A stretch of DNA of 19,552 bases from a virus. Taxonomy: Duplodnaviria; Heunggongvirae; Uroviricota; Caudoviricetes. The DNA lies in IMG/VR virus record IMGVR_UViG_3300029562_000126, positions 1-19,552 of that record; one strand, 5' to 3'. Numbering within the stretch: the first letter of the stretch is position 1; every line of letters starts with the position of its first letter. A program made the position numbers and the translations under genes. This document shows positions 384-2,115 of this stretch, piece after piece. The notes below the pieces were generated by a model. That model ran no database searches and was not told the origin of the DNA. It saw only the letters and a list, made by a program, of their open reading frames with translations.

Positions 384-1343
384 TTAATTTACCATCAGTC
401 TTAGAGCCAGTTCGTCCGGATAGGGATCGAAGTAATTCTGTGTAAGCAAGTAATCATTAGGATACTCACCCAGATAATGCTTCAGCAGAGTCAACGGCGC
501 AAGAAGAGGTAATGTGCCAGAACGATAGTTAAGTATAACCTCGCTCAACTCTTTACGCTGGCGTGTACTTAAGTAGTTACTAAAATACCCCTGTATATGC
601 ATCAGCACATTCGTGTGATTTTTACGTGATGCAGGTTTTCTGAGAATCGCCATCAGCTTATCACGATACACCTCAAAGTATGATTCAAGATCCGCCCACT
701 CGTGTATTGCAGCCACAAATGGTCCCATATCTTTATAGCCTGTCTGATTATGCGCCAACAACTGAAGCTTATAACGACTATGAAAAGCCAATAACTCTCT
801 TCTTGATAATTTCTCCTTGTAAAGGTGATTGAGCTCATGCAAAGCAAAAACTCTTTCAACAAAATTCTCACGAAGCACTGGATCATGTAATCGCCCATCC
901 TCTTCAACCGGTAGCCAGGAAAACTTTTCCATCAAAGTGCTCGTAAATAGTCCCACTCCATCTTTACGACCTCGATTACCATTTTCATCATAGACACGCA
1001 CGCGCTCCATGCCACAGCTGGGAGATTTAGCACAAACCACAAACCCCGATACATCCTTTAATTTGTCCATATAAGAACGACTAAACTCTGTCATTCTCTC
1101 TGTCACATCCTCATTCTGGTCGTGGCTGAAACACATCCGTATATTTCCTTGCGTCGAGCGCACAAGACGTAGAGCAGGACGCGGAACTGGCAGCCCTATA
1201 GCCATTTCCGGACATACTGGTCTGAATGTTACCCATTCCACTAATTTGTCCATTAAAAAGTCAGCTCTTTTGTGACCACCATCAAAACGAACAGCAGAAC
1301 CGGCCAAACAACCGCTGATTCCAATCACAGGTTTTTTTATCAT
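384..1343 (-). CDS. YbgA-family protein (DUF523/DUF1722-like, Cys-rich N-terminal domain); non-phage cargo
   Basis: 319-aa ORF from track. N-terminal GISGCLAG...CPE...SPSCG cysteine pattern and C-terminal region recalled as resembling E. coli YbgA / DUF523-DUF1722 proteins. Lower GC than the phage core. Confidence 0.6.
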   Translation of the reverse strand: MIKKPVIGISGCLAGSAVRFDGGHKRADFLMDKLVEWVTFRPVCPEMAIGLPVPRPALRLVRSTQGNIRMCFSHDQNEDVTERMTEFSRSYMDKLKDVSGFVVCAKSPSCGMERVRVYDENGNRGRKDGVGLFTSTLMEKFSWLPVEEDGRLHDPVLRENFVERVFALHELNHLYKEKLSRRELLAFHSRYKLQLLAHNQTGYKDMGPFVAAIHEWADLESYFEVYRDKLMAILRKPASRKNHTNVLMHIQGYFSNYLSTRQRKELSEVILNYRSGTLPLLAPLTLLKHYLGEYPNDYLLTQNYFDPYPDELALRLMVN

Positions 1344-1535
1344 ATCCTCCCCCTTGACTAATTCATTAACACATAAACTGTGTAGTGCACGGAATAAATT
1401 GCCTTTCTGGCGTCATCACTGACAATTTTTCTGTTATGGACTATTCCTAATATAGTATGAAAGTTCTTTAAGTGATCGGTCGTAATCATCTATCTTTCAT
1501 ACTTACTCTCAACTATCAAAAGTACAGGATTTATT

Positions 1536-2060
1536 ATGAAGTTATGGCCTGTGTTGACTGGCATTGCGCTCTCTTTCACTCTTATAGCATGTAAGGCCCC
1601 GACACCACCTAAAGGTGTGCAGCCGATTACAAATTTTGACGCCAACCGCTACCTCGGAAAATGGTATGAAATAGCTCGCCTCGAGAACCGGTTCGAACGT
1701 GGTCTGGAACAGGTCAGCGCTACTTATGGAAAACGGAACGACGGAGGGATTCGTGTACTTAACCGTGGATACGATCCAACGAAAAATAAATGGAGCGAGA
1801 GCGAAGGTAAAGCATACTTTACTGGAGATACTAAAACTGCAGCGTTGAAGGTTTCGTTTTTTGGCCCCTTCTATGGTGGCTATAATGTAATCAAACTGGA
1901 TGATGAGTATAAGTATGCTCTTGTCAGTGGTCCGAACAGAGAATACCTATGGATTCTGGCAAGGACCTCAACTATTCCAGATAAAGTAAAAGCAGACTAT
2001 GTGCGAACCGCTCAAAAGTTGGGATTCAATGTCAATGAATTATTATGGGTTAAACAATAA
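1536..2060 (+). CDS. Blc-like bacterial lipocalin, outer-membrane lipoprotein
   Basis: 174-aa ORF. Signal peptide with lipobox (FTLIAC). Motifs NFDxxRYLGxWYEIAR and KVSFFGPFYGGYNVI match the recalled E. coli Blc lipocalin, but clearly diverged from it, so this is a homologue rather than the chromosomal blc. Confidence 0.8.
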   Translation: MKLWPVLTGIALSFTLIACKAPTPPKGVQPITNFDANRYLGKWYEIARLENRFERGLEQVSATYGKRNDGGIRVLNRGYDPTKNKWSESEGKAYFTGDTKTAALKVSFFGPFYGGYNVIKLDDEYKYALVSGPNREYLWILARTSTIPDKVKADYVRTAQKLGFNVNELLWVKQ

Positions 2061-2088
2061 AATCCCTACCCGAAATGATACTTATTAG

Positions 2089-2115
2089 AAAAAAACCAGC
2101 CTTTGGGGAGGCTGG
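2089..2115 (-). terminator. Rho-independent terminator oriented for minus-strand transcripts, downstream of Q (tR'-like position)
   Basis: Inverted repeat CCAGCCT / AGGCTGG with a 6-nt loop; on the minus strand it is followed by a run of 7 T (plus-strand A-run at ~2089..2095). Coordinates approximate. Confidence 0.4.

Follow-up and report, generated by a model that had tools for sequence, protein, structure and literature searches.

The leftmost 2 kb of IMG/VR record IMGVR_UViG_3300029562_000126, a Caudoviricetes sequence of 19,552 nucleotides (the window, which is the whole stretch of DNA that was analysed), carry cargo genes beside the antiterminator gene Q of a lambdoid prophage. We conclude, with a probability of roughly 0.88, that this region is a known lambdoid moron cassette encoding a lipocalin and the tRNA desulfidase RudS, situated between Q and the lysis genes of a prophage that retains its late genes. 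The full cassette comprises the lipocalin gene (plus strand), rudS (minus strand) and a gene for a YdeO/PatE-like AraC regulator (minus strand); the window holds the first two. The cassette is ordinary and already known: published phage genomes contain it, the activity of its enzyme has been studied, and blc already figures among the listed morons of lambda. New, if minor, are the decay state of the copy in the window and a conserved pairing of lipocalin and rudS genes in chromosomes. The features of the region are listed below, with protein lengths in amino acids (aa) and G+C content as GC.

1-78, plus strand: terminal 78 bp (IRR end) of the insertion sequence IS3, matching annotated IS3 ends
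79-383, minus strand: AT-rich spacer from the rudS stop to the AraC-type gene, cut by IS3; 29.8% GC
384-1343, minus strand: rudS, encoding a TudS (DUF523) and DUF1722 fusion of 319 aa; PF04463 and PF08349
1344-1535, no strand assigned: intergenic DNA from which rudS and the lipocalin gene diverge, 192 bp; 34% GC
1536-2060, plus strand: blc-like gene for an outer-membrane lipocalin lipoprotein of 174 aa; PF08212 and NCBIfam Blc
2094-2117, minus strand: intrinsic terminator, a 9-bp G+C-rich hairpin followed by T7, from a terminator scan
2216-2593, minus strand: pseudogene of a Q antiterminator (Q82/QuuD type, PF06530), from a profile match and comparison of open reading frames (ORFs)

A moron cassette between Q and the lysis genes

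Several intact relatives share the gene order Q, lipocalin (plus strand), DUF523/DUF1722 (minus), AraC-type (minus), essD, rrrD and Rz, followed by a complete structural module. This order is found in the thrW prophage of strain E8 (L005), at attLambda next to ybhC (L003 and L004) and at other sites (strain WEC, L001, and a Qin-like prophage, L074), and also in the isolated phages 1H12 (L008) and IdasGreatGrand. In every intact relative inspected (L001, L003, L005, L008 and L078) the cassette lies between Q and essD, and the lysis and structural modules are complete. Other morons occupy the Q-to-lysis junction in DLP12-like prophages, which carry an nmpC-type porin gene there, and in Stx phages, which carry stx. 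In the sister prophage GPEC657, which shares the flanking genes, an nmpC-type porin gene fills the slot that the cassette occupies here. Since the cassette may be present or replaced by a porin gene while the late genes are complete, we consider it a polymorphic insertion (a moron) and not a substitute for late genes. The intact prophages, phage 1H12 and the porin gene in the same slot thus bear out the proposal of the first-pass annotation, made from the letters of the window, that the cargo is phage-borne and placed at a Q-to-lysis moron site.

The cassette is widespread. At least 80% of window positions 1-2700 is present in one place in 994 of 5426 complete Escherichia coli genomes (~18%), and 12 deposited phage genomes encode the cassette. 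Nucleotide identity to it is 99% in IdasGreatGrand and 91.6% in 1H12 and the Lambda_ev/2E9 group, and all three cassette proteins belong to existing PHROG families. Among lambda-like phages of infant-gut E. coli, over half were reported to carry blc as a moron (PMC6969025). Also identified were two short contigs (L061 and L066) of a 'Candidatus Nanosynbacter' metagenome-assembled genome (MAG) that carry Q, lipocalin, RudS, AraC, EssD and RrrD genes with 93-100% protein identity; these contigs are almost certainly a binning contaminant.

Nothing phage-late lies to the left of Q within the window, which ends in an IS element: the first 78 bp derive from IS3, and positions 65-78 are the reverse complement of TGATCCTACCCACG. 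The first-pass annotation, in which both this IS3 end and a 1-bp deletion in Q went unnoticed, had headlined the region as a late region replaced. According to that reading the prophage is a remnant from which the lysis and structural genes were deleted, with non-phage cargo in their place, and the frameshifted Q, a sign of an at least partly defective prophage, would fit it. We consider this extremely unlikely. An exact-sequence look-up of the 319-aa protein identified a contig (L080; ENA ERZ27256366, k119_11911) that is 100% identical to window positions 1-11343, without gaps, and reaches 9.6 kb further left. There it carries the rest of IS3, a gene for a 243-aa AraC-type protein, and genes for a holin, a lysozyme, an Rz-like protein (spanin) and an HNH endonuclease; still further left are genes for the small and large terminase, portal, prohead protease and major capsid proteins. 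Comparison with L078, which is the same prophage (99.98% identity) free of IS3 and with Q intact, shows that the IS3 of L080 is a simple 1258-bp insertion with a 3-bp TTT duplication and nothing deleted. Thus, the leftward extension that the first-pass annotation had suggested, carried out via L080, leads to lysis and structural genes beyond the IS3, and in this lineage the late region has not been replaced. The headline is also contradicted by the intact relatives, all of which (L001, L003, L005, L008 and L078) have the cassette plus late genes.

The IS3 transposase gene reads rightwards, antisense to late transcription, and the insertion is ~50 bp upstream of the AraC-type gene. The IS3 junction of the window was not found in complete E. 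coli genomes, none of which covers more than 89% of the window. Two apparent full-length matches to the junction were discarded, one being a chance joining of pieces and the other an independent IS3 insertion ~6 bp away. H55 (HKUOPY1), considered as sharing the junction, was rejected because the island at its thrW is another one. The independent insertion lies in the Qin-like prophage of strain DETEC-E601 (L074, ~9060), where an IS3 has entered the rudS-to-AraC spacer ~6 bp from window site 78/79; this spacer of 30% GC may thus be a local hot spot for IS3.

The Q gene of the window is disrupted. Compared with the intact Q of strain WEC, it has lost 1 bp in a short G/C run (~2419-2420) and is split into ORFs at 2413-2607 and 2216-2434, which match separate halves of the Phage_antitermQ profile. 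Q is intact and encodes 125 aa in L001 and L078; L080 has the split of the window. Given the frameshift, we conclude that the prophage of the window is decaying and at least partly defective.

As the first-pass annotation had noted, a terminator lies just past Q (9-bp hairpin and T7, read on the minus strand from 2117 to 2094). The hairpin is likely the late terminator tR' of the Q-controlled late promoter pR'. It is the sole terminator-like site from Q to the holin gene in the intact relative L078, and it is kept in cassette-bearing phages, whereas the porin-bearing sister prophage has a different hairpin. A promoter-like site found by consensus scan (2244-2215) overlaps the end of Q and would give a short terminated RNA of ~120 nt, in line with a pR'/tR' unit of the Q82 type. 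Because the hairpin lies 34 bp past the lipocalin stop codon, it may also end or stabilise the convergent lipocalin mRNA. A search of positions 1-2800 against Rfam recovered no known RNA, the sub-threshold matches being confined to the terminator hairpin and, more weakly, a microRNA family at 2020-2068.

The three cassette proteins and their control regions

The product of rudS combines two domains. Residues 7-149 match PF04463 (2-thiouracil desulfurase/DUF523; E 3e-40) and residues 192-309 match PF08349 (DUF1722; E 3e-40), and the protein belongs to PHROG family phrog_3275. RudS is a [4Fe-4S] desulfidase that turns tRNA 4-thiouridine (s4U) back to uridine (Jamontas et al., NAR 2024, PMC11417400). 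In that study the phage 1H12 protein gp66 (H3V29_gp66; RudS_vir) was synthesised and expressed, and the s4U content of E. coli tRNA fell with each RudS variant examined, RudS_vir among them. The protein in the window is 93% identical to RudS_vir. Cys12, Cys44 and Cys110, which occupy the [4Fe-4S]-binding positions listed for RudS_vir and RudS_ST (PMC11417400, Table 1), are all present. Also present, at positions deduced from the cysteine offsets, are Glu46 (C44-P-E46), Arg55, Ser107 and Ser109 (S107-P-S109-C110), which by position would correspond to the catalytic Glu51, Arg60, Ser111 and Ser113 of RudS_KT; mutation of these equivalents abolished activity (PMC11417400). Based on this conservation, and on the published activity of a 93% identical protein, we identify the window protein as a predicted RudS tRNA s4U desulfidase.

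The label 'YbgA-family' given by the first-pass annotation understates a protein that is a full TudS-DUF1722 fusion with published activity. K-12 YbgA is 48% identical to the window RudS over residues 164-315 only; the match is confined to the C-terminal half because YbgA is a stand-alone DUF1722 protein of 169 aa. E. coli has been stated to lack RudS (PMC11417400), which holds for the core genome only, since about one-sixth of the complete genomes carry a phage-borne copy.

The lipocalin matches PF08212 (Lipocalin_2) with E 7e-43 and scores 313.5 bits against the NCBIfam Blc subfamily model NF007786, for which the cut-off is 267. Its best matches among solved structures are those of E. coli Blc (3MBT, 1QWD and 2ACO; E ~1e-67), and it is 59% identical to K-12 Blc over the full length. 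Among phage proteins it is 97% identical to the 'Lipocalin Blc' of phage 1H12, and it belongs to PHROG family phrog_2809. The N-terminus reads MKLWPVLTGIALSFTLIAC-K and contains the lipobox L-I-A-C19; position +2 is K and not Asp, which fits sorting to the outer membrane. Most likely, to judge from these similarities, the protein resembles Blc in function, sitting as a lipoprotein in the outer membrane and binding lysophospholipids or damaged lipids. As Q ends at 2216 on the minus strand, the lipocalin gene is convergent with Q and with late transcription. Both this arrangement and the AT-richness of the gene had been recognised in the first-pass annotation, which was also correct that the two genes are diverged homologues of chromosomal blc and ybgA (59% and 48% identity, respectively) and not those genes themselves.

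A different role for the lipocalin is conceivable. Outer-membrane lipoproteins of other siphophages (Cor/Llp-like) block receptors, and a phage-encoded outer-membrane lipoprotein on its own transcription unit might likewise mask a receptor and exclude superinfecting phages, with rudS an unrelated passenger. We consider this very unlikely given the 59% full-length identity to Blc and the score above the Blc subfamily cut-off. No cassette protein has any defence-system match in PADLOC. In addition, lipocalins 76-82% identical to this one adjoin rudS in most of the paired non-phage loci (see below), pointing to a common role in housekeeping or stress.

The AraC-type gene, third in the cassette, lies outside the window, past the IS3. 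Its 243-aa product aligns over its whole length with the YdeO profile, at a score below the cut-off, and is 54% identical to Sakai ECs_0287, the AraC-type regulator that prophage Sp1, integrated at thrW, encodes at its far end. In both E8 (L005 4524-5267) and Sakai Sp1 (L076 24102-24845), thrW prophages have a second AraC-type regulator gene at the far end, at the left attachment site (attL); this second gene adjoins an IS3-family fragment. We take ECs_0287 to be PatE (Z0321), in keeping with its location in OI-8. The possibility that the cassette regulator is PatE itself was considered and rejected, as the PatE-like gene lies at the far attL end of thrW prophages and the two, at 54% identity, are distinct genes.

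Control regions are suggested by short matches. The 192-bp divergent region, which is conserved among phage copies, presumably holds putative promoters of rudS and of the lipocalin gene; one weak promoter-like site (1512-1485) points toward rudS. Two further promoter-like sites in the AT-rich spacer, at 337-310 and 242-213, face the AraC-type gene, each with 10 of 12 consensus matches, and the spacer was aligned with uninterrupted versions from other prophages. Overall, the cassette has only weak consensus matches to promoters, and a single hairpin, shared with tR'.

Chromosomal relatives and possible role

To place the cassette, one genome per species was scanned, yielding 64 loci with RudS relatives that are 66-76% identical to the window protein. 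Omission of the two Nanosynbacter MAG contigs leaves 62 chromosomal loci, from Citrobacter, Enterobacter, Leclercia, Lelliottia, Kluyvera, Klebsiella, Pectobacterium and others. A lipocalin gene lies divergently upstream of rudS, within 3 kb, in 41 of these 62, all in non-phage contexts. The lipocalins are 76-82% identical to that of the window in all but two loci (68% and 72%), and a MerR/MlrA-like regulator gene separates lipocalin and rudS in 38 of the 41 paired loci. Citrobacter sedlakii has no gene between lipocalin and rudS, which are separated by 188 bp as compared with 192 bp in the phage. The surroundings there are not those of a phage, the neighbours being betT-like, pseudouridine synthase and lysC-like genes. 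The chromosomal RudS-relative loci yielded no homologue of Q or of the holin, and no photolyase gene was identified beside RudS homologues in the 64 species loci. The RudS paper (PMC11417400) does not contain the word 'lipocalin' and does not mention the chromosomal pairing.

In C. braakii and C. amalonaticus (L009 and L012, ~2300-6960), rudS ends an operon of DUF1365, CFA-synthase-like, DUF2878 and DUF3833 genes. The DUF1365-to-rudS locus is present in two copies in C. braakii, and in neither species is the rudS of this locus paired with a Blc-type lipocalin gene.

The chromosomal pairing supports capture of the two genes as one block, and the pair was probably taken up in this way from an enterobacterial chromosome, as far as gene order and protein similarity indicate. 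The source would be a chromosome in which the pair sits in clusters of light and oxidative-stress genes.

From these observations we infer an expression pattern and a possible benefit to host or phage. RudS would revert s4U at tRNA position 8, thereby removing a near-UV-sensitive base whose crosslinks would otherwise stall translation and trigger growth delay. Published results fit such a role: s4U crosslinking after near-UV exposure slows translation and is relieved by RudS, and overexpression of RudS_KT shortened the growth delay induced by ultraviolet A (UVA) light (PMC11417400). The lipocalin, like Blc, would reside in the outer membrane and bind lysophospholipids or damaged lipids. In a lysogen, the cassette genes would be expressed from promoters of their own, located in the 192-bp divergent region and the rudS-to-AraC spacer. 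Upon induction, polymerase modified by Q would pass the hairpin, cross the lipocalin gene in antisense, then transcribe rudS and the AraC-type gene in sense, and continue into the lysis genes. In the prophage of the window, late expression has probably been lost given the frameshift in Q and the antisense IS3 between rudS and the regulator gene, in which case any benefit must come from expression independent of Q.

It is possible, although we hold it unlikely, that the pair is a mobile module against near-UV and photo-oxidative stress, taken in one piece from a light-stress cluster of an enterobacterium, protecting the host in the lysogen and keeping up translation after UV induction, with the regulator linking it to stress regulons. 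If so, lysogen tRNA would lose the UVA-sensitive s4U and the outer membrane would gain a scavenger of damaged lipids.

A related possibility is that RudS mainly serves the phage as a late gene product. After UV induction it would erase the s4U of host tRNA and thereby keep tRNA crosslinks or the stringent response from slowing the synthesis of late proteins. The position of rudS is suggestive in this respect: it has the orientation of late transcription, no other sense gene comes between it and tR', and no second terminator lies on the way to the holin gene. However, the cassette includes a regulator gene and an AT-rich divergent region that presumably holds promoters of its own, as is usual for morons expressed in lysogens, and many lambdoid phages do without it. 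We regard a mainly phage-serving RudS as doubtful; it is compatible with the moron cassette explanation and does not exclude it.

Several points weigh against the account of a captured, functional moron cassette given above. The promoters, the start site of pR' and the tR' role of the hairpin are predictions from consensus scans. An assembly error might in principle account for the frameshift in Q, although the identical L080 shows the split too; L080 may itself be the source of the window. When the divergent intergenic region was aligned with those of the Citrobacter chromosomal pairs in search of a shared operator, no conservation was found. Nor did a direct donor of the cassette emerge, as the closest relatives on chromosomes reach only 66-82% identity. 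Lastly, RudS_vir desulfidates tRNA less than other RudS proteins do, despite good expression (PMC11417400), so tRNA s4U may not be its sole or best substrate.

The discovery value of the region is small, and its use lies in annotation. The name rudS can be given to the genes labelled 'YbgA family / DUF523 and DUF1722' that lie next to Q in about one-sixth of complete E. coli genomes. The conserved proximity of lipocalin and rudS genes, chromosomal as well as phage-borne, offers a modest, testable lead on the role of bacterial lipocalins under light stress.

Remainder of the window and comparison with known systems

The right part of the window is E. coli chromosome, with proB and proA at 16967-19422 (minus strand). 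Two features mark the junction with the prophage.

15599-16762: tyrosine integrase gene, abutting the thrW 3' end
16777-16852, minus strand: thrW, tRNA-Thr(CGU)

Left of the integrase gene is a lambdoid early region comprising exo, bet, gam, a cI/cro-like pair, O, P, ren, ybcN, ninE, ybcO, rusA, ylcG and Q. The cassette (79-2215) has a GC content of 40.1%, compared with ~50% for the adjoining phage genes and 55% for proBA. The thrW 3' end is present in a single copy in the window (16777-16801), which places attL, and with it the prophage boundary, beyond the left end of the window, as the first-pass annotation had expected. Nor are the two cargo genes core genes at this locus.

Other genes in the early region may be involved in defence. 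An AT-rich island (35% GC) between ren and ybcN encodes a 500-aa SNIPE/T5orf172 (DUF4041) protein (4509-6011, plus strand) with a full-length match to the PD-Lambda-1 anti-phage defence model (E 2e-198). Beside the repressor gene are genes for a HipA-like kinase (250 aa) and a DUF3037 protein (280 aa) (9993-11569, plus strand), which match both components of the candidate defence system PDC-M66 (E ~1e-15 each). At the other end of the window, the last 94 bases (19459-19552) are unlike the sequence upstream of proB in most E. coli genomes; they match exactly in three pig isolates (YZ22PE67, 68 and 106), in which ISEc33 (IS630-like) is annotated between proB and phoE.

The closest known counterpart of the window RudS is RudS_vir, which shares the length of 319 aa, the TudS plus DUF1722 architecture, Cys12, Cys44 and Cys110, and a place between lipocalin and AraC-type genes downstream of Q. 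The two proteins differ by 23 substitutions, and the window prophage differs in its frameshifted Q and adjacent IS3. E. coli Blc and the window lipocalin have in common the lipobox cysteine, the Lipocalin_2 domain, a Blc-subfamily score and 59% full-length identity, but Blc adjoins ampC whereas the window gene is phage-borne, AT-rich and paired with rudS. The divergent lipocalin-rudS pair itself is shared, at 66-82% protein identity, with clusters in Enterobacter, Leclercia, Lelliottia and Citrobacter and with Salmonella ORF319 (STM1389, RudS_ST). Most of the chromosomal clusters have a MerR-family gene between the pair; in the phage cassette that gene is missing, and the regulator, of AraC type, is encoded downstream. 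Prophage-encoded AraC-like regulators also include PatE, PsrA and PsrB, which control acid resistance in enterohaemorrhagic E. coli and to whose group ECs_0287 has been assigned. With morons of the DLP12 and Stx type the cassette shares the slot (from Q and its terminator to essD), a first cargo gene convergent with Q and, presumably, a terminator hairpin brought by the cargo, and in both cases the slot is polymorphic among otherwise near-identical prophages. The cargo differs: a lipocalin, a tRNA desulfidase and a regulator in the cassette, compared with a porin or a toxin in those morons.

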